The notes under the pieces are model-generated. The model was given only the letters and a program-made list of their open reading frames with translations, did no database searches and was not told the origin of the DNA. The position numbers and the translations under genes are program-made. From the IMG/VR virus record IMGVR_UViG_3300024518_005076: DNA of 24,274 bases, one strand, 5' to 3'. The first letter of the stretch is position 1, and each line of letters starts with the position of its first letter. Below, one piece after another: positions 863-22,373 of the stretch. The stretch comes from a virus (taxonomy: Duplodnaviria > Heunggongvirae > Uroviricota > Caudoviricetes).

Positions 863-1320
863 GCCGTAGCGGATACGTAGATGATCTTGATATGGGGCAG
901 CTGAACCTTTACCGGGCAACAGTAGACCGAACCATCAATGGGAAACGGGGCCAAGCGTTCCTTCGAGAGATGGCCGCAGCAATGGACGCGATGACCGAGA
1001 AAGTTCTGATTGCGTCCGAGCTAATCAACGAAGATGGTGATGTTTGTGCCATTGGCTCTGCCTGCAAAGCCAGAGGGATCGACGCATCGAACATCGACTC
1101 TGAATGTCCAGATTCAGTCGGATTCCTGGTTGGAATATCTCGGACATTGGCAGCTGAAATCGAATTCATTAATGATGAGGATGGGCCGTACTATCGCAGT
1201 GAAAAGCCCGAGGACAGATGGCTTCGCGTCAGGAGGTGGGTCGGCAGTAAAATTATTGCGGAGTTGGATGCGGAACAACCTCAGAATCAACCGAGTAGTC
1301 ATACACCTCAGTCTCAGTGA
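859..1320 (+). CDS. Conserved phage hypothetical protein (MSRSGY…GKRGQAFLRE…CAIG…RWLRVRRW type)
   Basis: ATGA overlap with the previous stop. The motif pattern is one I recognise as a recurrent phage family of unknown function. Confidence 0.75.
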   Translation: MSRSGYVDDLDMGQLNLYRATVDRTINGKRGQAFLREMAAAMDAMTEKVLIASELINEDGDVCAIGSACKARGIDASNIDSECPDSVGFLVGISRTLAAEIEFINDEDGPYYRSEKPEDRWLRVRRWVGSKIIAELDAEQPQNQPSSHTPQSQ

Positions 1321-1633
1321 CCGTATCAACCACCTTCTCGACTGCGGGGTTCATCAGAGCATTGGCTGCAAATCCTAATGTTCCAGCACCCAGAGCAGTC
1401 GCAAGTACAGCGGTAACCACCGCTCCGGTGCTCGCGCCCGTCACAGTCATCGAGTTGTCGCTACATGGGTACGTGCCCACATCGTAGCCTTCGCCCAAGC
1501 CAGAATCATGGGCGATGCTCTGTCTGCGAATCTTCATCCGCTCAGACACATCCTGAAGCCATACGTTACGTAATCGATTCTTCTCCCGGAGAAATGATTC
1601 CGCTGCGTTCTTGAGGATTCCTTGATTGCTCAT
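1253..1633 (-). CDS. Single-pass membrane protein (126 aa)
   Basis: GGAG SD 6 nt upstream of ATG 1633. Ala/Gly-rich hydrophobic segment GAVVTAVLATALGAGTLGFAANALM, followed by an acidic Val/Thr-rich tail. Confidence 0.7.
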   Translation of the reverse strand: MSNQGILKNAAESFLREKNRLRNVWLQDVSERMKIRRQSIAHDSGLGEGYDVGTYPCSDNSMTVTGASTGAVVTAVLATALGAGTLGFAANALMNPAVEKVVDTVTETEVYDYSVDSEVVPHPTPQ

Positions 1634-1805
1634 CTTCATCTCCGATTCGAAAAAACTCGCGGTCCATCTGAATCATCTGATCGTCCGCCTCCTTCTGTTG
1701 ATCAAGGATTCTCAGCCCCTTGGACAGAAGTTCGATCTGCTGGCCCTTCTGGTCCAGCTCCAGAATCCTCTTGGCTTCTGCTCTATATTCTTCATCTGAC
1801 TTCAT
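1566..1805 (-). CDS. Small charged coiled-coil protein (79 aa)
   Basis: AGGA SD 7 nt upstream of ATG. Composition is helical and E/K/Q/R-rich. Overlaps the downstream gene by 68 nt. Confidence 0.6.
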   Translation of the reverse strand: MKSDEEYRAEAKRILELDQKGQQIELLSKGLRILDQQKEADDQMIQMDREFFRIGDEDEQSRNPQERSGIISPGEESIT

Positions 1806-1837
1806 GATGATATCCTGGATTTGGCTGATGAGTATAG

Positions 1838-1873
1838 AAAAACCCCTGACACCCTGAAAGGATGAAAGGGGTT
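1838..1873 (-). terminator. Intrinsic terminator-like hairpin for the minus-strand transcript
   Basis: AACCCCT (1841-1847) pairs with AGGGGTT (1867-1873), with an inner imperfect stem. On the minus strand the hairpin is followed by a U-run (…GGGGTTTTTCT). Confidence 0.55.
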
Positions 1874-1877
1874 GGTG

Positions 1878-1905
1878 CGAGGATGCACGGAGGGATTCAT
1901 CCTCG
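1878..1905. other. Intergenic inverted repeat (8-bp stem)
   Basis: CGAGGATG (1878-1885) / CATCCTCG (1898-1905) with a 12-nt loop. Confidence 0.55.
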
Positions 1906-1922
1906 ATCGCGAAGGGATGCTC

Positions 1923-2126
1923 TTATTGGGCCGGAGGTACGGCACCAATCGGACCTTCTCGGTGCATCATCTGCCGAATTGCGGCAGCCTGAACCGGATC
2001 GGTCTCAGTGTAGTTCTTCAGGTACGCTCGGTCCAGAACCGACATGAATGCGTCGGACGACTGGCTTCGGCGATCTGAGTTGCTCTGCGTGGTAGCCATC
2101 AAGAGGGCTTTCAGAAACTCGTCCAT
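1923..2126 (-). CDS. Small hypothetical protein (67 aa) coupled to the protease gene
   Basis: ATG 3 nt after the protease stop, with AAGGAA SD. Clean ORF MDEFLKALLMATTQSNS…GAVPPAQ. Confidence 0.7.
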   Translation of the reverse strand: MDEFLKALLMATTQSNSDRRSQSSDAFMSVLDRAYLKNYTETDPVQAAAIRQMMHREGPIGAVPPAQ

Positions 2127-2129
2127 GGC

Positions 2130-3275
2130 TTACTTCCTTGTATCTTGCGACTTGAATCTATCTACGTGAACATTCACTGTAGAACCAGAAGCTACGGCTT
2201 CGTGCCGCTTTATCTCTCGACCTTTTTCGTCGATGAATCGGATCGTTACAACCCCAGGTGGTCCCTGTGGTCCAACGCTTCCGTCTTTTCCGTCTCGGCC
2301 TGGGCGTCCGTCTGCTCCGTCTCTTCCTGCCAGCCCGTCAGTTCCCGGCTGGCCTTGAGGGCCTTCACTGCCATCTTTTCCGTCTTTTCCGTCCTGGCCA
2401 TTATTGCCCTTGACTGGATTCTGCAATAATGCCTCAAGCTGTGCAATACGTTTCTCGTACTTTTCCAGAAGCGATCGCACTCGTATGTGCTCAGCAGACC
2501 TTTCTCGGTCAGAGTTGATCCAGACAGGGAGATCACCCTCAATGGGAGGGGCAGGCACGTCGTTTTCTGGTGATGGCGGAAGATCTGCACGCCACCTCTC
2601 GCACCATCCGTTCCGGCAATCCTTATCCATTAGTTTCTCGTTGGCTTCCATGAATCCCATGATCTGGCCATGCTCGGCTGCCCAGATTTGCCTGTTGTCA
2701 TGTCCATGAGTACTGATGCCAGCCAATCCGGATGTTCCGGACTTCAGATTACTGATGAAGATCGGGCCTCCAGAGCTTCCGCCAGCGAACTTACCATTCC
2801 GAAGATTGAACACGTTTCTGGTATTTCTCAGAGTGTTGTGTTTCAGATTATCCTTGAACACGAGGTCTGCCCGCTGCTTTTTAACGGGAGAGCCAGCCGG
2901 ATGACTGATAGAGAGCCATGACCCCGACTGGGGCAGAGGGCTGATAACCGAGACAGGTTCCGGAACATTCTTGGATGGGAGCTTGAAAAGTGCGAGATCT
3001 CGCTTACGATCGATCGCGATCCAGGTGCCTTTCCCAACCTTGATGCCTGCCGATGCAACATCAAACGTGCCTCCCACAGACCCAGTACAGTGGGCCGCAG
3101 AAAGACCAAACGCATGTTCAGCACCTTTTGCTATAATACAGCCGCTGCATCCAACCGGCCAGATTCTAACGAGGGAAGATTCGTAGTTCGAAGTGTCGTC
3201 AGCGATGACCTTGAGAGGCTCTCTGTCCGCCAGGATGGTCATGGACAGCAGCATAGCGAGAAGTAATCGTTTCAT
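2130..3275 (-). CDS. Secreted trypsin-like serine protease with Pro-rich linker, coiled coil and collagen-like repeat (381 aa)
   Basis: AAGGAGG SD before ATG 3275. Signal peptide MKRLLLAMLLSMTILA. Chymotrypsin-clan triad motifs LSAAHC (His), RDLALF (Asp) and GGSSGGP (Ser). 17 G-X-Y triplets near the C-terminus. Confidence 0.88.
   Translation of the reverse strand: MKRLLLAMLLSMTILADREPLKVIADDTSNYESSLVRIWPVGCSGCIIAKGAEHAFGLSAAHCTGSVGGTFDVASAGIKVGKGTWIAIDRKRDLALFKLPSKNVPEPVSVISPLPQSGSWLSISHPAGSPVKKQRADLVFKDNLKHNTLRNTRNVFNLRNGKFAGGSSGGPIFISNLKSGTSGLAGISTHGHDNRQIWAAEHGQIMGFMEANEKLMDKDCRNGWCERWRADLPPSPENDVPAPPIEGDLPVWINSDRERSAEHIRVRSLLEKYEKRIAQLEALLQNPVKGNNGQDGKDGKDGSEGPQGQPGTDGLAGRDGADGRPGRDGKDGSVGPQGPPGVVTIRFIDEKGREIKRHEAVASGSTVNVHVDRFKSQDTRK
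2253..2408 (-). repeat. Collagen-like (Gly-X-Y)17 coding repeat
   Basis: GNN GQD GKD GKD GSE GPQ GQP GTD GLA GRD GAD GRP GRD GKD GSV GPQ GPP G read directly from the translation. Confidence 0.92.
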
Positions 3276-6252: not shown

Positions 6253-6532
6253 AGTCGATCACGACGATCCATACTCGGCAACGAGACCTAGATCTGAATA
6301 TCAGTCGAGCATCAGAAAGACAACAGTCTCAACAGAGGCTGCGTTCAGCCTGTCTTGGCTTAAGAACCGCATTGCGATCGTGAATCTCGAAGATTCGATC
6401 CAGGCACTATGCGACATCGGGGAAACAAAGATGTCAAAGGTTCTTCAGGATAGTTGTGCGAACATAAGCGGCATCTGCGACATACTCGAAGAGATGAGTA
6501 TGGAGAAGCATGGGAAGCTGCCCGCTAGATAG
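6236..6532 (+). CDS. Hypothetical protein (98 aa)
   Basis: Last gene of the plus-strand block. Its stop overlaps the stop of the convergent PAS gene. Confidence 0.6.
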   Translation: MSSFVEVDHDDPYSATRPRSEYQSSIRKTTVSTEAAFSLSWLKNRIAIVNLEDSIQALCDIGETKMSKVLQDSCANISGICDILEEMSMEKHGKLPAR

Positions 6533-7052
6533 CCTCTCTCTTACTGAATATAGCAATCGCCAGTCTTCCTGGTATTCCCCAGATACTGATTCTCACTGGA
6601 TCGCTGTCGGAAGTCGCAGTCTTGGCGACACAGTCAACAGTTTGCTGAAACGGCTTGGCTGGTGCTCCCATGGCTGATGAAAAACTACTGCGATGCGCAT
6701 CTCTCATCCCCTGTGGGATCAAATGAGCTACCCCGTACCCGAAAACATCAGCCCTCTTGGTTCCGAAGAATTTTGAAGCGCCGTCAGACCACATTGTGAT
6801 GATCCCGTTTTCGTCAACACCGACAACCGCCGATCCTGATTGTTCTAACACATCAAACACGACCTGGGCATCGCCCTTGCTTTTTCTTAGTTCTTCGCGA
6901 AGCTCAACGACCTGCTTATAAACATCCGATGGGGGAACAGAAAGCCTCATGGATACGTTTAGTGCGAGCGCGAGCCCTAAAACCATTACGATATTCAGGA
7001 CCAGCAGAAGTGCTGTGTTTATCTTCTGTTGGTCGTTGTTGACTTCAGTCAT
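6525..7052 (-). CDS. Membrane-anchored stand-alone PAS-domain protein (175 aa)
   Basis: ATG 7052 overlaps the holin-like stop (ATGACTGA). TM helix INTALLLVLNIVMVLGLALAL, then a short coiled coil. PAS signature SAVVGVDENGIITMWSDGASKFFG…DVFGYGVAHLIPQGMRDAH. No output domain. Confidence 0.85.
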   Translation of the reverse strand: MTEVNNDQQKINTALLLVLNIVMVLGLALALNVSMRLSVPPSDVYKQVVELREELRKSKGDAQVVFDVLEQSGSAVVGVDENGIITMWSDGASKFFGTKRADVFGYGVAHLIPQGMRDAHRSSFSSAMGAPAKPFQQTVDCVAKTATSDSDPVRISIWGIPGRLAIAIFSKREAI

Positions 7053-7314
7053 TTCTTTGTCTTTCTGCCAATTTGGCGAGTTGGTTTTTAACTTGTCCCA
7101 ACACCGTAATAAACTCACGTGTGAGATCCTCAAATTTCTTGTCTTTTTCATCTATATGCCTCAGCCACTCAGACCTCTCATCGGCGTGTCTCTTCTCGAT
7201 TGATGGTATGTGTTTGACGACCAGATACCAGACAAGGGCACCGAACCCACCAGCCGTGACCAGCTGAATGATTGGCGCTACCCAGCTCATTGTTGTGTCA
7301 TCCGCGAGAATCAT
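7045..7314 (-). CDS. Holin-like small membrane protein (BhlA/UviB-type architecture)
   Basis: One N-terminal TM helix (IIQLVTAGGFGALVWYLVV) followed by a charged coiled coil (IEKRHADERSEW…). Two in-frame Met starts (7314 and 7290). Confidence 0.6.
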   Translation of the reverse strand: MILADDTTMSWVAPIIQLVTAGGFGALVWYLVVKHIPSIEKRHADERSEWLRHIDEKDKKFEDLTREFITVLGQVKNQLAKLAERQRND

Positions 7315-7343: not shown

Positions 7344-9575
7344 TTATCTCGTGGAATATTTGAAGTCGCCTCCAGACCGAAGAGACTCCCGAACGTCATC
7401 CAGGGCTGACTGTAAAGATTTTCTTTCGTCATCAACAGTGACTACGCGAGATCCAAAAGCCTCTTCGAATTCGCAATCAGACATAATGTCCGTATGTCCA
7501 CCCATATAATCTACAATCTTCTCGCCTTTCTTGCCATCCGAGACTGACTGAATCGCGAACACAATGTCGACTTGATCAAGGACGGCGTCTCCAAAATCGG
7601 CCTGATGGACAGCCTCATAGCACAAAACGACACTGTCTGAAGTATCTGGTGATCTTCCTATTTTTTCTTTTATTGTTGGAAGTGCGGCCCGCTTCTTGTT
7701 CTGGCTCCTCTGCTTAGGCGTGATGTAGTACTTCTGCATGTCTGTGTCGTAAATCTTCTCGTGAGCCGCCATTTCATCCACGAGTTCCGTATCGTTGAAG
7801 ATCATGAATGGGTCGAGGTGTTGCGAGTCGGGATTGATCCTGGCCCCGAACTCACCGTAAAGCTCCGCCCGGCGATTCATGTATCTTTTGGGAAATCTGA
7901 CGGGAGCCTCGTTTCCATGAACCCGGATAACCCAACAGCCTGCATCCTCAAGAATGTCAGCCATGGCGACTCCGCCAGCACCGATAATATCGATGGCCAT
8001 CGGGTGGTCACCCAGACAGATGTCAATTCCCAAGGACTTGCACGTCTCAACGATCCACGAGAGTGTTGATCTGGTGTCCGCCTTTCTTGTCCACTTCTTG
8101 CCCTTGATTCCTGCTGTGCCTCCATAAGTCAGAACCGTCTTGTCCTTATCCACGGAGTAAGCAAGGTCGAGGCCGAATCCGCTGATCTGGATTTCGTCCC
8201 GGTGCTCGCTCCACATCTCCATAGGACCCCTCATCCACGATGGAGGGACAACCTGCATCTCAAGATCTTCAGGTGGGAATTTGCCCTCGCCTGACCACGC
8301 CTTTTCGATGTCGTCCACGCCCTGCATGATGGTCGTGTACTTCAGATAATCCATCTGTCCTGGGATCAGAGCCCGGACATGCTTCTGGACCTCTTTGTCG
8401 ATAGGGTCGCCCTCGGCATAGAAATACTCTTCCCCATCAATCGTCTCAAACTCGATACCGCCAGGTGGTGCGAACTCGGGCATCTGCAATCTCTTGGCCC
8501 GTACATTCAGACAGTCGCGACCACCGAATGTCAGGCAGGCACGCTTAATACCCCGCTGGATGAAGACTTGGTTCTTGTCCGGGTCTTCCTTCGGAAACAA
8601 GTCAAAGAACCAGCCCGAGAGGACACGTGGGTTGGAGATGCAGATAATTTTGCGGCACTGCTTACGGAGGTTCTTCAGCATAAACTGAGGCACGGCAGAC
8701 GACTCGTCCACGACTCCAAGGGTATTTGCTCCGTGACGGCCAGATACACCTTCACCAGTCTCTGGATTGGCGATAATCAAAGAGTGTCTAGGATTATCTG
8801 GGTCCTTGAGTTCAGTTGTCAGGTTGGCACCTGAACCAGGATGGGCCATCTTCTTCCGCCATGTGACAAGCTCAGCGAACATAACATCCTTGGAATGTGC
8901 GGACGACTGGCTGGTCATGATGATTCTGTCATCCGGATACAGGTAGTACCAGAGACACAGACATAAAGCGGTAATGAACCCCTTGCCCGGAGAAGTTGAC
9001 CCTTTAATCGCGATCTCTCTGATCGTCGGATCGAACAGATGCAGGGCAAATTCACACTGGACATCATCGAGACGCAGGTTCAGGGCGTAGTCTCGCTCGC
9101 AGTGTTTCTTGAAGTATCTAAGATCGAGTTCGTCATGTATGACCAGTTCTGGCCACATGATCTCTATCAGCCTCCAGGGACTTCCGCCTATGGCTTCCAT
9201 CTTGGCTTTTCGGAGAGAAACTGCCCTGATCCTGGCTGGTGTTAAATCTTCCGAAGAATCTATTCTTTGCTGGATTTTTTCCGCGACTTTCTCGTCGTTT
9301 CGCTTAACCTGTGGCTTCTTCTCGATGATCGGAATCTCATCAAGGTCAAACCCATGATCGACCAACACCTTCTCTGTTCGGCGATTGCTCGTATATTGGC
9401 CGTTCCTTCCTCGGTCGAGAAAACCCTCGTCAGAAAGGAACTTCAGATCACTGGCGTCGACGCCCTTTGATCGCAGAGTGTCGTCAATCGCCTTGGATGC
9501 AGTGACGTGACCGCGATGCTTCCACACGTTACAAAGCAGGGACAGATGATCGATTTTCAGGTACGGATCCGTCAT
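7344..9575 (-). CDS. terL: Terminase large subunit (extended, 743 aa)
   Basis: P-loop region IAIKGSTSPGKG, then LW…P…IIMTS. GRHG…GVVDES (Walker B) and ISNP coupling motif. Nuclease motifs GLDLA, IDIIGAG, NRRAELY and RSPDTSDS. Confidence 0.88.
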   Translation of the reverse strand: MTDPYLKIDHLSLLCNVWKHRGHVTASKAIDDTLRSKGVDASDLKFLSDEGFLDRGRNGQYTSNRRTEKVLVDHGFDLDEIPIIEKKPQVKRNDEKVAEKIQQRIDSSEDLTPARIRAVSLRKAKMEAIGGSPWRLIEIMWPELVIHDELDLRYFKKHCERDYALNLRLDDVQCEFALHLFDPTIREIAIKGSTSPGKGFITALCLCLWYYLYPDDRIIMTSQSSAHSKDVMFAELVTWRKKMAHPGSGANLTTELKDPDNPRHSLIIANPETGEGVSGRHGANTLGVVDESSAVPQFMLKNLRKQCRKIICISNPRVLSGWFFDLFPKEDPDKNQVFIQRGIKRACLTFGGRDCLNVRAKRLQMPEFAPPGGIEFETIDGEEYFYAEGDPIDKEVQKHVRALIPGQMDYLKYTTIMQGVDDIEKAWSGEGKFPPEDLEMQVVPPSWMRGPMEMWSEHRDEIQISGFGLDLAYSVDKDKTVLTYGGTAGIKGKKWTRKADTRSTLSWIVETCKSLGIDICLGDHPMAIDIIGAGGVAMADILEDAGCWVIRVHGNEAPVRFPKRYMNRRAELYGEFGARINPDSQHLDPFMIFNDTELVDEMAAHEKIYDTDMQKYYITPKQRSQNKKRAALPTIKEKIGRSPDTSDSVVLCYEAVHQADFGDAVLDQVDIVFAIQSVSDGKKGEKIVDYMGGHTDIMSDCEFEEAFGSRVVTVDDERKSLQSALDDVRESLRSGGDFKYSTR

Positions 9576-9594: not shown

Positions 9595-10548
9595 ATGTTG
9601 CACATTGCCTATATCTTCCCAAAAGACCTTTATCAGACCAAGATGTCTCCGGGAAGGAAGATGTATGGGGAGGCAGTCGACAGACTGGATGATGCGAAAG
9701 TTACAGTTACTGGACCTGGCTGGTGGAAGAGCAACGACATCAGGGAGTCGCTTCCAGAAATCGAACGAGAGCACGGACCAGTCGACGCTTTGTGGTGCTA
9801 CAAGACCGAGAATGTGACAGGGCTCAGAGACTTGGATATTCCTCGCGTGTTCGTGTTCAACGAAGCCAACGATGAAGAGAAGACTCGTAAGGATATCAAC
9901 GACGCATCGGCTACGCATTGTGTTTTTCATCATTACGGCGACCATGTCAGATGGGTCCATGTACTTGCCGATGAGGGAGTAAGCGCCTCTCTTCAGAATC
10001 ATTGCGCTCCAGGAAACCCATTTGCCGACACGTCACCGTGGGAACAGAGGCCGACTAAGTGTCTGCTGACTGGGGCTATCGGGTTTCACGTGTACCCTCT
10101 TCGGTTCAAGTACGAGTCTCTTCTGAGGAATAGAGATCTGGACGGATACGGGCTGCCTCATCCCGGATACAGAATTGGAGGTTCTCAGGCTATTCGTTCC
10201 CAGTACGAGTCGTACATGATGTCAATGGCCAGGGCGAAGATAGCTCTGTGCTGCACCAGTCGATACAAGTACCCGCTCGCCAAGTTGTTTGAGGCTGCTG
10301 CGTCTGGATGTGTCATCGCAACAGACAAGCCTGAATGTCCGATGTTTGAACAGTCGCTCTGGCCGTGGTGCATCCAGATTGACTCGTCGTGGACAAGTGG
10401 AGAGACCGCTGAGTGCATCAACAGTTTCCCAGATGAAACACTGAAGACAATGGCGTACCACACACTTCGAACGGCCCGAGAAGTGTTCACAATGGAAGGC
10501 TGGGCCAGGAAATTCACAGACACTGTCAGAAAGAAAATCAATGAGTGA
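9595..10548 (+). CDS. Glycosyltransferase, GT-B fold, CgeB/Glyco_trans_1_2-like
   Basis: C-terminal Y…MARAKIAL…YPLAKLFEAAASGCVIATD is typical of CgeB-like glycosyltransferases. Confidence 0.78.
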   Translation: MLHIAYIFPKDLYQTKMSPGRKMYGEAVDRLDDAKVTVTGPGWWKSNDIRESLPEIEREHGPVDALWCYKTENVTGLRDLDIPRVFVFNEANDEEKTRKDINDASATHCVFHHYGDHVRWVHVLADEGVSASLQNHCAPGNPFADTSPWEQRPTKCLLTGAIGFHVYPLRFKYESLLRNRDLDGYGLPHPGYRIGGSQAIRSQYESYMMSMARAKIALCCTSRYKYPLAKLFEAAASGCVIATDKPECPMFEQSLWPWCIQIDSSWTSGETAECINSFPDETLKTMAYHTLRTAREVFTMEGWARKFTDTVRKKINE

Positions 10549-19562: not shown

Positions 19563-19862
19563 GTGCGATTCGAAATCACTGCCATAAGGACTGAATGCAA
19601 ATGCGAAGACGTCTTCGCAGAAACAAAGGAAGATGCAGCCAAGCTGTTCCGGGAAAAGCACCCCACGTTCCGCATTGAAGACGTTTTCGTCGTGACTGAT
19701 TACGACGAAGAAGAGGGCAAGATCATCAGCGAAGGCTGGACATCAGCCGGACAGTGTGAAGGTTGTTCGGTGGAGTTGTGGTGCGAAGAGGATTACGTAT
19801 TAGACATGGAAGGTGAGATGAATTTCTGCATAAAGTGTGGATGCGAACCGGTTTCAACATGA
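19563..19862 (+). CDS. Small acidic protein with DpnD/PcfM-like N-terminus and C-terminal Zn ribbon
   Basis: AAGGAG SD and GTG start. N-terminal FEI…VFAETKEDA, then CEGC…CIKC. Confidence 0.7.
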   Translation: MRFEITAIRTECKCEDVFAETKEDAAKLFREKHPTFRIEDVFVVTDYDEEEGKIISEGWTSAGQCEGCSVELWCEEDYVLDMEGEMNFCIKCGCEPVST

Positions 19863-20845
19863 AAAGAATACTTATTGCTCATGATGTTGAATACAAGCGC
19901 CGAGACGGCATGGTTCGCTGGGCATATGCTCAACGCTCAAACGCCCTCAAGAAGAATGCCCCAGACGACATAGTGATTGATCGGTGTGCGATAACCTGGC
20001 TCCAGAAGCAGCCAGAGATCATGGGAAGTTACGATCTCATCTTCTGTATCGACTACATGTGGGCACTCACAATCCGACACTTAGTTGATGTGCATGCCCC
20101 GAAAGCCAAGCTGGTTCTCTCGTATAACCGAGACCACAGAACAAACAACGAGTTCTGGGAGCCTGCCCTCCTCGCTGCCCATTACGTGATCTGCAACAAC
20201 CCTGACAGGTACTATGGGGAAGGGGTCCGCCCCAACACTTGCGTCATCTCAAACGGCGTGGATATGGACCTGTGGAAGAAGAAGACCGCGTGGGAAACCC
20301 GACCGCTGGACGTGATCTGGTCATCCGCATCTTCAGCCGGAAAGAAGAAGGGATACCTTGAGATTATCGTTGATCTCAAGAAGTTAATGGTGGATGCTGG
20401 CGTCACCTGTGATATTCGCCCCGTCATGAGTGCGTTTGATCCGGTCGTCCAGAACGAAGACGAGATGGTCGACTGGTACAACAGCGGCAAGGTGATTATC
20501 TGTCCGTCAGAAAGCGAAGGCGGCGGACCAAGCATGGTGCTTGAGGCCTTGGCTTGCGGGTGTTCGGTTGTCACGAACCAGATCGGAAGCGCCAGCGAGC
20601 TTCGCGGAGAAGAAGACAGCCCCAACCTGATTATGTTTGACGGAAACGGAAACGTGAAGCAATTCATGAGCAAAATACAGGCTGCCCTGAAAGACCCCGA
20701 CATGAACAGCCGGGGACACAGGGCAATCCAGCCATGGTCCTACGAGCACAGATCAAAGTGGTTCTATGCTCTGTTTCGTGCCCTGATTCAGGATCGTCAG
20801 CCAGAGAACTTCGATTACCGGGAAACGCACTGGAGTCAGATATAA
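19859..20845 (+). CDS. GT4-family (GT-B) glycosyltransferase (328 aa)
   Basis: ATGA-coupled start at 19859. VISNGVD, then YN…VIICPSESEGGGPSMVLEALACGCSVV (E-X8-E variant of the E-X7-E motif). Confidence 0.88.
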   Translation: MKRILIAHDVEYKRRDGMVRWAYAQRSNALKKNAPDDIVIDRCAITWLQKQPEIMGSYDLIFCIDYMWALTIRHLVDVHAPKAKLVLSYNRDHRTNNEFWEPALLAAHYVICNNPDRYYGEGVRPNTCVISNGVDMDLWKKKTAWETRPLDVIWSSASSAGKKKGYLEIIVDLKKLMVDAGVTCDIRPVMSAFDPVVQNEDEMVDWYNSGKVIICPSESEGGGPSMVLEALACGCSVVTNQIGSASELRGEEDSPNLIMFDGNGNVKQFMSKIQAALKDPDMNSRGHRAIQPWSYEHRSKWFYALFRALIQDRQPENFDYRETHWSQI

Positions 20846-21213: not shown

Positions 21214-21587
21214 CCCGTAGCGAGCTGGAATCTAAGATCAGGACATGGGCGTCGGAGTTCTCAGAGATAGCCTCAGAGAGCGTCCCAGAGGCCTTCGTGA
21301 AGTACCTCGCAAACAGATTGACCGAGACAGGGTTGGGACAGGAGGACCCTGATGTTCTCGCAGTCCGCACTCCGGACGGAATCTTTGCCGCCAGGGTGGA
21401 ATGGGAAAATAAAGAGGCCGGAGTCGTGTGTGTTTGCCTGATCGATACAGGTGAGGTGCTGGTATCTCGATATGACGCCCTGATCAGGAATGTCGACCGA
21501 TCGAAGCTTGCGAGGGCGCTGGACTCCAAGGACTGGTCAGAGCCGAAGATTCTGACTTCAGTCAGCGCCGACTCGGGCGCTAAATAA
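21210..21587 (+). CDS. Hypothetical protein (125 aa)
   Basis: ATGA coupling and GGAG SD. Its stop overlaps the stop of the convergent lipase gene. Confidence 0.65.
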   Translation: MTRSELESKIRTWASEFSEIASESVPEAFVKYLANRLTETGLGQEDPDVLAVRTPDGIFAARVEWENKEAGVVCVCLIDTGEVLVSRYDALIRNVDRSKLARALDSKDWSEPKILTSVSADSGAK

Positions 21588-22344
21588 ACATAGCCGCATA
21601 GTCAGCTGCTGAGTGCTGCCTGACAGAGTAGTGGCTTGTTGATTTGATTCTGTCGTACAGGCAGTAGTACCATGATGGCTCAAAGATCATCATGTCATCC
21701 CGGTTGAAATAGACCAGATCACCAGCGTGTCTGTACCGGTACGGAGGAATGAGCCTCGGAACGATGTCGCCCTTGTTCACGACCCTGAACAGACGACCGT
21801 TCATCTGGTTTGTCATCTTCCTGGCAAGTGGCCTGCCAAGGTGTCGTGGAGCCCCGAATGTGTAGACTCCGGCAACCTCTCCATACCCATCAGTCTCCAT
21901 GTGCCATCCGCAAAGACTCGCCATTGCGCCGCCCGCTGAATGGCCAGTGATAACCATCTTGGCTGTTTTGGGATCTGGCAACAATGAATAGAGGCAATCG
22001 TCCAGCTTCTTCCAGATATTCTTGAAGGATAATAGGAACCCAGTGTGGACGTTCCATTCCTTCCAGTAGGTGGGCCTGATCATGAGATTCCGCTTATGGT
22101 CCGAGACCGACCTGGTCCCACGGAAAGCGATGACAGCGAAGTTATCTTTTATGATAACCAGGCAGCTGTTCCTGTCATGGGAAATGGGAACGTAATGGTC
22201 GCAATTCCAGTTCTGGCGTGATTCGATCGACTCGGCATCCTGATCTGTGTAGCAGGCGTCGTAGCTTGCCTCTGCACAGATAATGCCCGCCTCTTTATTG
22301 AACGCGCCTGGCTTGAATATCTGCTGTGCTCTCTTGAGGTTCAT
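21580..22344 (-). CDS. Class 3 (fungal-type) lipase, alpha/beta hydrolase
   Basis: IAFRGT (oxyanion), VHTGF, TGHSAGG (GxSxG), YTFGAPR, RVVN.GDIVPRL (Asp) and a C-terminal His (QHS). GGAG SD favours ATG 22344 over 22356. Confidence 0.9.
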   Translation of the reverse strand: MNLKRAQQIFKPGAFNKEAGIICAEASYDACYTDQDAESIESRQNWNCDHYVPISHDRNSCLVIIKDNFAVIAFRGTRSVSDHKRNLMIRPTYWKEWNVHTGFLLSFKNIWKKLDDCLYSLLPDPKTAKMVITGHSAGGAMASLCGWHMETDGYGEVAGVYTFGAPRHLGRPLARKMTNQMNGRLFRVVNKGDIVPRLIPPYRYRHAGDLVYFNRDDMMIFEPSWYYCLYDRIKSTSHYSVRQHSAADYAAMFI

Positions 22345-22373
22345 GTGTATCTCCATTGTGGAGTTACTAGAGG

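Follow-up and report, generated by a model that had tools for sequence, protein, structure and literature searches.

The subject of this analysis is a cassette of four minus-strand genes in a 24,274-nucleotide stretch of tailed-phage DNA (hereafter the window), which is the reverse strand of positions 44317–68590 in the 68.6-kb linear IMG/VR record IMGVR_UViG_3300024518_005076, a record estimated to be 69% complete. The cassette specifies a protease, predicted to be exported and to carry a collagen-like stalk, together with three small proteins that we refer to as orf67, orf79 and orf128. What is new is that this trio of partners is conserved downstream of the protease in 11 distinct loci, in nine of which a holin-like gene specifying a protein with two transmembrane (TM) segments lies upstream. 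There is strong support for regarding the four genes as a conserved phage envelope module with three dedicated partners. That they constitute a non-canonical, protease-based lysis module is the reading we tentatively prefer, at a little less than an even chance. The genes are listed below; dN/dS, the ratio of nonsynonymous to synonymous substitution rates, was computed against L002, a 75%-identical relative.

2130–3275, minus strand: protease gene, 381 amino acids, an open reading frame (ORF) with Pfam Trypsin_2 and Collagen matches; dN/dS 0.09
1923–2126, minus strand: orf67, a small soluble protein, 90% identical to its L002 counterpart; dN/dS 0.075, no Pfam or PHROG match
1566–1805, minus strand: orf79, an acidic helical soluble protein; dN/dS 0.47, family hidden Markov model (HMM) matches at the loci that also have orf67 and orf128
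1253–1639, minus strand: orf128, a bitopic membrane protein; dN/dS 0.18, invariant alignment columns

The cassette had been proposed in a sequence-only reading of the window, and its ORFs are present as described there; by their dN/dS values orf67, orf79 and orf128 are real genes. With a dN/dS of 1.4, the 48-residue ORF that separates orf67 from orf79 is noncoding, and a 471-residue, TTG-start frame for the protease was rejected as upstream read-through, the true start being MKRLLL at 3275. The coupling of orf67 to the protease was borne out: its ATG lies 3 nucleotides past the protease stop, with AAGGAAG upstream. Orf128 overlaps orf79 by 74 nucleotides. The single TM segment earlier ascribed to it stands; its length is 128 amino acids from the first ATG, the 126 previously given being counted from the second Met.

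Scans of viral and metagenome contigs yielded 35 further loci, in which the partners were sought with iterated HMMs. In 11 sequence-distinct loci of uncultured phages (the window, L009, L011, L017/18, L020, L021–23, L024, L027, L042, L043 and L044) the protease gene is immediately followed by homologs of orf67, orf79 and orf128; the proteases of these loci are only 25–30% identical to that of the window. The orf128 homolog overlaps the 3' end of the orf79 homolog, in the +1 frame, in all 11. Directly upstream of the protease in 9 of the 11 is a gene whose 64–98-residue product has two TM segments and ends in a basic tail; the best hit of this protein is a weak match to a holin PHROG (E 0.03), and the two loci lacking the gene are the window and L009. 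The same layout recurs in two other clades (L010/L033/L034/L038/L040 and L012–L016/L041), where a soluble protein of about 70 residues is followed by a helical, acidic one and then, from an overlapping gene, by a membrane protein whose TM segment is Gly-rich and whose periplasmic tail bears an acidic, aromatic motif. When the orf128 family was aligned with these TM partners by hhalign, the match had a probability of 14% (E 0.002) and was confined to the TM segment and tail; homology is not demonstrated. The sequence-only reading had suggested looking for the four genes together in viral contigs, and it is in phage contigs, mostly accompanied by the small genes, that the homologs occur.

To the extent of the searches, the family occurs only in uncultured viral or metagenomic contigs; a protease identical to that of the window is encoded on one contig of 99 kb. 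The proteases of the window and of L020 had no tblastn match among 50,697 GenBank phages, and no true family member was present in 185,579 species-representative genomes. Two loci were discarded as not belonging to the family: L007, from a metagenome-assembled genome of Planctomycetota, encodes a Trypsin_2 protease of the generic cellular kind, and L008 matched through collagen only. The protease family was also absent from 401 Planctomycetota genomes, five of which contain matches to the major capsid protein of only 27–28% identity. A literature search returned no description of such a module.

The protease is divided as follows.

3228–3275, minus strand: signal peptide, residues 1–16 (MKR, a Leu-rich core, and ILA before the cut at D), read from the sequence; A16 invariant in the closest clade
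2631–3197, minus strand: chymotrypsin-fold domain, about residues 27–215, with H62, D93 and S168 (GGSSGG) and the pair C43/C63 (AlphaFold2, Foldseek, profile)
2514–2591, minus strand: Pro-rich linker, about residues 229–254, after the Cys pair C220/C225 (sequence; low predicted local distance difference test score, pLDDT, over 233–262)
2421–2510, minus strand: coiled-coil helix, residues 256–285 (AlphaFold2 helix), preceded by the motif DLPxWI(N/D)SDRER kept in the closest clade
2247–2408, minus strand: collagen-like repeat, 18 GXY triplets, residues 290–343 (Pfam PF01391, E 1.2e-8; regular-expression count)
2133–2246, minus strand: short C-terminal beta domain at the tip of the stalk, residues 344–381 (38 residues), with strands predicted at 342–348 and 354–362

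A search with residues 1–285 over 1.84 billion cluster representatives gave 148 clusters. In an alignment of 61 relatives the catalytic residues H62 (SAAHC), D93 (DLALF) and S168 (GGSSGG) are invariant, which agrees with the complete His/Asp/Ser domain described earlier; near-invariant, too, is the trypsin-like pair C43/C63 on either side of the catalytic His. Pfam Trypsin_2 (PF13365) matches residues 43–173 at 30.1 bits against a cut-off of 27.6. The AlphaFold2 model, built on ten homologs, contains a two-barrel domain at residues 35–200 with pLDDT 80–93, for which the best PDB matches found by Foldseek are MarP, Deg1, DegS and HtrA1 (E about 1e-8, probability 1.00). The best sequence match of the 61-relative profile is DegS (E 3e-11), followed by DegP, DegQ and HtrA1. 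There is no PDZ domain, Pfam giving Trypsin_2 and Collagen only; the C-terminal half consists of linker, coiled coil and collagen.

Export, too, was part of the sequence-only reading and appears well founded. A16, at position -1 of the predicted signal-peptidase site, and C220 are invariant in the closest clade and C225 near-invariant, and nearly all of the roughly 150 relatives begin with either a signal peptide or a cytoplasmic helix and TM anchor. Some relatives end in a TM segment, and about half have at least five GXY triplets. Because the triad is invariant and a signal peptide or anchor is nearly universal among the relatives, export and catalytic competence would therefore be conserved properties of the family, and the window protease can be firmly predicted to be an exported, S1C-like enzyme with its triad intact.

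The Pro-rich linker, coiled coil and C-terminal domain that had been recognized earlier are all present, and the collagen repeat is longer by one triplet than the (GXY)17 given: Pfam Collagen (PF01391) scores 35 bits against a cut-off of 27.2 over 18 consecutive triplets. Since these follow a coiled coil, the protease is probably trimeric, as had been thought; coiled coil and collagen together should join three chains into a stalk of about 20 nm bearing three protease heads. The tip has the consensus VTI..D..G.EI...V.SGS, which is kept in full-length relatives. A search for tip domains in three long family members, by sequence against the PDB, gave no match.

Phage prohead proteases (S78, S77, U9 or U35) are cytoplasmic and encoded between the portal and major capsid genes. 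The contig contains a separate gene for an XkdF-type Peptidase_S78_2, and the collagen-stalked protease, which is of another fold family, has an export signal and is encoded far from the head genes, is thus not needed for head maturation, in keeping with the earlier opinion that it is not a prohead protease. It has no Pfam or PHROG match to a muramidase, transglycosylase, amidase or peptidoglycan-endopeptidase family. Distant members match PHROG 9683 (“protease,” category “other”), namely P0005 (E 1e-12) and the L020 protease (E 1e-7); this family is not among the best 25 of the 40 PHROG matches of the window protease. P0005 (461 residues) is extended at its N-terminus by some 100 residues, in which two or three hydrophobic stretches resemble a holin by eye; the extension may reflect a fusion or a wrongly assigned start, and no holin family is among the 25 listed of its 28 matched PHROG families.

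Neither orf67 nor orf79 has a recognizable export signal, and both are predicted to be small, helical and cytoplasmic; they would therefore not be direct periplasmic partners of the protease. The earlier proposal of membrane or accessory partners holds for the co-occurrence of the genes across distant phages and fails for direct partnership in the periplasm. The strict linkage of cytoplasmic proteins to a periplasmic enzyme implies that orf128 conveys some regulation across the membrane, which could be a holin/antiholin-like timing or a signalling of the DegS/RseA kind. Orf79 is acidic (isoelectric point 4.5), its residues 1–55 are kept in L002 while its tail varies where orf128 overlaps, and its family matches have blastp E values of 6e-11 to 9e-9.

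Orf128 has an N-in/C-out topology with one TM segment. It has a basic N-terminal helix (residues 5–45) and the invariant motif N.W.HD..R...RR...A...GL....DVGT.P; the TM segment (about residues 64–95; nucleotides 1355–1450) is Gly/Ala-rich and weakly hydrophobic; and the periplasmic tail, 30–50 residues long (about 33 with the TM segment at residues 64–95), is acidic and contains E.(Y/W)(D/E).(S/E)(V/I). The AlphaFold2 model has a mean pLDDT of 54, with the N-terminal helix at about 76–79 and the remainder of low confidence, and there was no usable match in the ESM Atlas. None of the three proteins matches any Pfam or PHROG family, be it of holins, antiholins, spanins, sigma or anti-sigma factors. 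A match of orf128 to TraT (17 bits against a cut-off of 31) and a weak one to a tail PHROG were both rejected as low-complexity Gly/Ala matches.

In two-component spanins, often encoded by overlapping genes, the i-spanin is anchored by a TM segment at its N-terminus and extends a long coiled coil into the periplasm, and the o-spanin is a lipoprotein with a lipobox. The architectural likeness of the orf79/orf128 pair to spanins, suggested earlier, does not survive: orf79 lacks an export signal, TM segment and lipobox, and the periplasmic tail of orf128 is only 30–50 residues long. A lipobox is absent from all four proteins, as had been reported.

In four long protease variants (P0184, P0197, P0178 and P0162; 569–683 residues) the protease is preceded by an N-terminal anchor and followed by a second TM segment, Gly-rich like that of orf128, after which comes a conserved C-terminal cytoplasmic domain; P0184 and P0197 had no PDB sequence match. 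HMMs of orf79, orf128, orf67 and the two-TM protein were run against 154 protease homologs as a test for fusions and gave no significant match (best E 0.16), and an apparent likeness of orf79 to the N-termini of membrane-anchored protease variants, seen by eye only, was dropped.

Between orf67 and orf79 lies a further element.

1836–1873, minus strand: terminator-like hairpin with a U-run (RNA fold -32.3 kcal/mol, z = -2.7)

It is followed by TATACT and then by an AGGA ribosome-binding site, and is almost invariant with respect to L002 at a divergence where synonymous sites of the flanking genes are saturated. A simple terminator scan missed it. The hairpin is probably a terminator or attenuator splitting the cassette; such a conserved hairpin and U-run between orf67 and orf79 suggests that the four genes may form two transcription units in the window phage.

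The source record is that of a tailed phage, with genes for a portal, a major head protein, a head-tail adaptor and a 1378-residue ORF in the tape-measure position at 23–47 kb. Other window genes specify Erf/Rad52, helicase, exonuclease and ParB-like proteins. The cassette is about 18 kb from the tail module and 4 kb from the following gene.

7344–9575, minus strand: terminase-large-subunit-like gene, 743 amino acids (PHROG 2, E 2e-17), separated by about 35 kb from the genes for portal and capsid

Among the relatives, L020–L027 and L011 have the gene order RusA-like resolvase, two-TM protein, protease, orf67, orf79, orf128 and SNase-like nuclease, with genes overlapping or spaced by 0–6 nucleotides. 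A RuvC-like resolvase gene precedes the protease in L012–L016. In L010/L033 the module is directly upstream of a homolog (45–48% identical) of the window terminase-like gene, and in L003 a ParB-like gene and two others intervene between module and terminase. Places behind a Holliday-junction resolvase gene or shortly ahead of the terminase are usual for lysis cassettes. In G002, which is 93% complete, the module stands at the right end, the end adjoining the terminase, about 8 kb past the last large tail gene and with replication genes between. Lambdoid phages likewise keep their lysis genes between the replication genes and the terminase-adjoining end of the genome. The gene downstream of orf128 differs between the window and its close relative L002, and in L013 (7607–8200) and L014 (3029–3610) a Peptidase_C92 gene (YiiX/YaeF permuted papain-like amidase) directly follows that for the TM partner; its product might likewise act on the envelope, as a second enzyme.

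The terminase-like gene is followed at once by a gene pair (6525–7314, minus strand; the strand of the cassette, from which it is 3.3–3.8 kb distant) for an 89-residue single-TM protein coupled to a membrane-anchored PAS protein, neither of which was found by BLAST in the close relative L009. A class-3 lipase gene (21580–22356, minus strand; Pfam Lipase_3, E 7e-27; no signal peptide) comes directly after the 1166-residue ORF that closes the structural module, 18 kb from the protease cassette. The phage also has two glycosyltransferase-like genes (9595–10548 and 19835–20845, both plus strand), and sulfotransferase, NUDIX and SPFH/Band_7 genes are present on the contig.

A conventional endolysin was sought at several levels. 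No muralytic family was among the 19 Pfam families obtained from 41 ORFs of G002, nor any lysis family among the 25 listed of the 36 PHROG families that the same ORFs matched. The 79 remaining ORFs of the contig gave 15 Pfam families, none muralytic, larger ORFs being scanned separately. Six-frame searches of five module-bearing records found no Phage_lysozyme, Amidase_2, SLT or Peptidase_M15_4, all of which were matched in control genomes; GH19 and GH108, for which there was no positive control, also gave no match. Overall, neither the contig nor four related records, the 93%-complete G002 being one, yielded a muralytic endolysin family.

Position, the holin-like neighbor in relatives, the failure to find another lytic enzyme and the restriction to phages together make a lysis module the most likely interpretation. 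We infer from the genomic position, the holin-like neighbor and the lack of a recognizable endolysin that lysis is favored among the three roles previously offered, namely degradation of a proteinaceous wall or S-layer during lysis, superinfection exclusion through receptor clipping, and digestion of extracellular matrix. Late in infection the exported protease would attack a protein component of the host envelope, candidates being a wall layer made of protein, the tethers of the outer membrane, peptide cross-links, and some autolysin of the host that cutting would activate. Orf128 would act as a membrane timer, in most relatives together with the small two-TM holin-like protein, and orf67 and orf79 might be its cytoplasmic regulators. 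In the fullest version of this scheme, which we think doubtful, the clade would have dropped muralytic endolysins altogether and would lyse its hosts through a trimeric, stalked protease acting on a protein layer or on autolysins, timed by orf128, orf67 and orf79.

Several observations weigh against a role in lysis. The window cassette is a minus-strand island amid early-type genes (exonuclease, HNH-like), the terminator-like hairpin divides its four genes, and the upstream two-TM gene has no homolog anywhere in the window's contig. The partner proteins, as judged by Pfam and PHROGs, belong to no holin, antiholin or spanin family. An endolysin could be encoded in the missing part of a contig that is only 69% complete, divergent muralytic enzymes could escape Pfam and PHROGs, and the scan of G002 left out a 485-residue ORF of the tail region and ORFs of fewer than 55 residues. 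In L013 and L014 the Peptidase_C92 product, rather than the protease, could be the lytic enzyme.

In another interpretation, one we consider unlikely, the module would signal in the manner of DegS and RseA: the protease would cut the periplasmic tail of orf128, the Gly-rich TM segment would then be cleaved or released, and orf67 and/or orf79, freed from the basic helix of orf128, would turn on late genes or set the time of lysis. DegS is the closest solved relative by profile and among the top fold matches; orf128 has an RseA-like topology, in that its N-terminal domain is conserved and cytoplasmic, its only TM segment abounds in helix-breaking Gly and its periplasmic tail bears a conserved motif; orf79 is acidic where the orf128 helix is basic; and the strict linkage of two cytoplasmic proteins to a periplasmic enzyme would be explained. 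The similarity to DegS is, however, general and to be expected of any S1C-like domain, and the protease has no PDZ sensor domain. Orf67 and orf79 are far smaller than sigma factors and have no DNA-binding, sigma-like or other recognizable domain, and a trimeric 20-nm stalk is hard to explain if the substrate tail sits at the inner membrane. Somewhat less probable is a spanin-like accessory step, in which an undetected endolysin cuts the wall and the protease strips outer-membrane-to-wall tethers or a surface protein layer. Here the incompleteness of the contig counts in favor, as do the Peptidase_C92 gene adjoining the module in L013 and L014, an estimated stalk length close to the periplasmic span, and a module without spanin-like genes (no lipobox o-spanin, no coiled-coil i-spanin); against this, G002 shows no muralytic family at 93% completeness.

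The cassette could instead be a moron-type accessory for non-lytic remodelling of the envelope, either clipping receptors or other surface proteins for superinfection exclusion or degrading matrix, and this we rate lower again. An opposite-strand island whose downstream neighbor differs from that in L002 is typical of exchangeable accessory modules, and conserved export and active site would suit such a function. Morons, however, are usually sporadic, whereas this is a set of four or five genes in fixed order, with proteases 25–30% identical, found repeatedly beside resolvase and terminase genes. Furthermore, no member occurs in species-representative cellular genomes, giving no sign of prophage carriage, which is where exclusion functions would count most. 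A virion protein, fibre or depolymerase-like, with the collagen stalk in a tail fibre and the protease digesting a surface layer on entry, seems to us very improbable. All strong PHROG matches of the collagen segment are indeed to tail-fibre families, but they are confined to the GXY repeat (residues 288–345). Virion assembly in the cytoplasm is hard to square with a Sec signal peptide that is cleavable, with conserved disulfide cysteines and with variants anchored in the membrane, and the gene lies outside the tail region both in the window, at about 18 kb, and in G002, at about 8 kb past the last large tail gene.

On the prevailing view, lysis by phages requires an enzyme that cuts peptidoglycan. 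A phage-restricted exported-protease module, in the position of a lysis cassette and without a recognizable muralytic enzyme, would challenge this rule if all three of these properties hold. It would also point to hosts in which the strength of the envelope depends on protein. Were the fullest version of the scheme true, such proteases would join glycosidases, amidases and metallo-/cysteine-endopeptidases as a fourth class of effector in phage lysis. The module defines three small protein families outside the Pfam and PHROG models, which are candidate lysis timers or regulators, and it offers a natural example of a collagen stalk positioning an enzyme in the periplasm. Even without a role in lysis, a periplasmic protease linked to two cytoplasmic proteins through a membrane protein would amount to a trans-envelope system not previously described in phages.

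Among known proteins the nearest to the window protease, by profile and fold, are members of the HtrA family (DegS, DegP/DegQ, plant Deg1; MEROPS S1C) and Mycobacterium tuberculosis MarP (Rv3671c), with which it has in common the chymotrypsin fold, the His-Asp-Ser order and an extracytoplasmic location. HtrA proteases are trimers and have PDZ domains. The window protease has none and would trimerize by its C-terminal coiled coil and collagen rather than by the protease body; it has the trypsin-like His-loop pair C43/C63, which DegS lacks in the alignment; and, unlike HtrA and MarP, it is phage-encoded and accompanied by three dedicated small genes. MarP activates a wall hydrolase by cleaving it. 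The DegS-RseA-sigmaE system shares with the module a periplasmic S1C-like protease, a single-pass N-in/C-out protein and small cytoplasmic partners, whereas the module has no sigma-like partner, PDZ domain or site-2 protease gene, and its collagen stalk would be left unexplained by the comparison. PHROG 9683 differs from the window module in having neither an assigned role nor described partner genes.

Sec-exported and signal-anchor-release (SAR) endolysins, such as Lys44 of Oenococcus phage fOg44, Lyz of P1, and R21 of phage 21 with its pinholin, likewise use host Sec for export before lysis, in place of release through holin holes, and, like the window module, are encoded alongside small membrane proteins and near packaging genes. 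Those enzymes are muramidases, amidases or transglycosylases, whereas the window enzyme is a predicted serine protease; its signal peptide seems to be cleavable and not of the SAR type, and its partners match no holin family. A further parallel is with the lambda S, R, Rz/Rz1 cassette. The window module has no muralytic domain and its overlapping pair is not spanin-like; both are compact late-region blocks beside resolvase and terminase genes, in which a two-TM, basic-tailed protein (in the relatives of the window module) comes first and an overlapping gene pair comes last.

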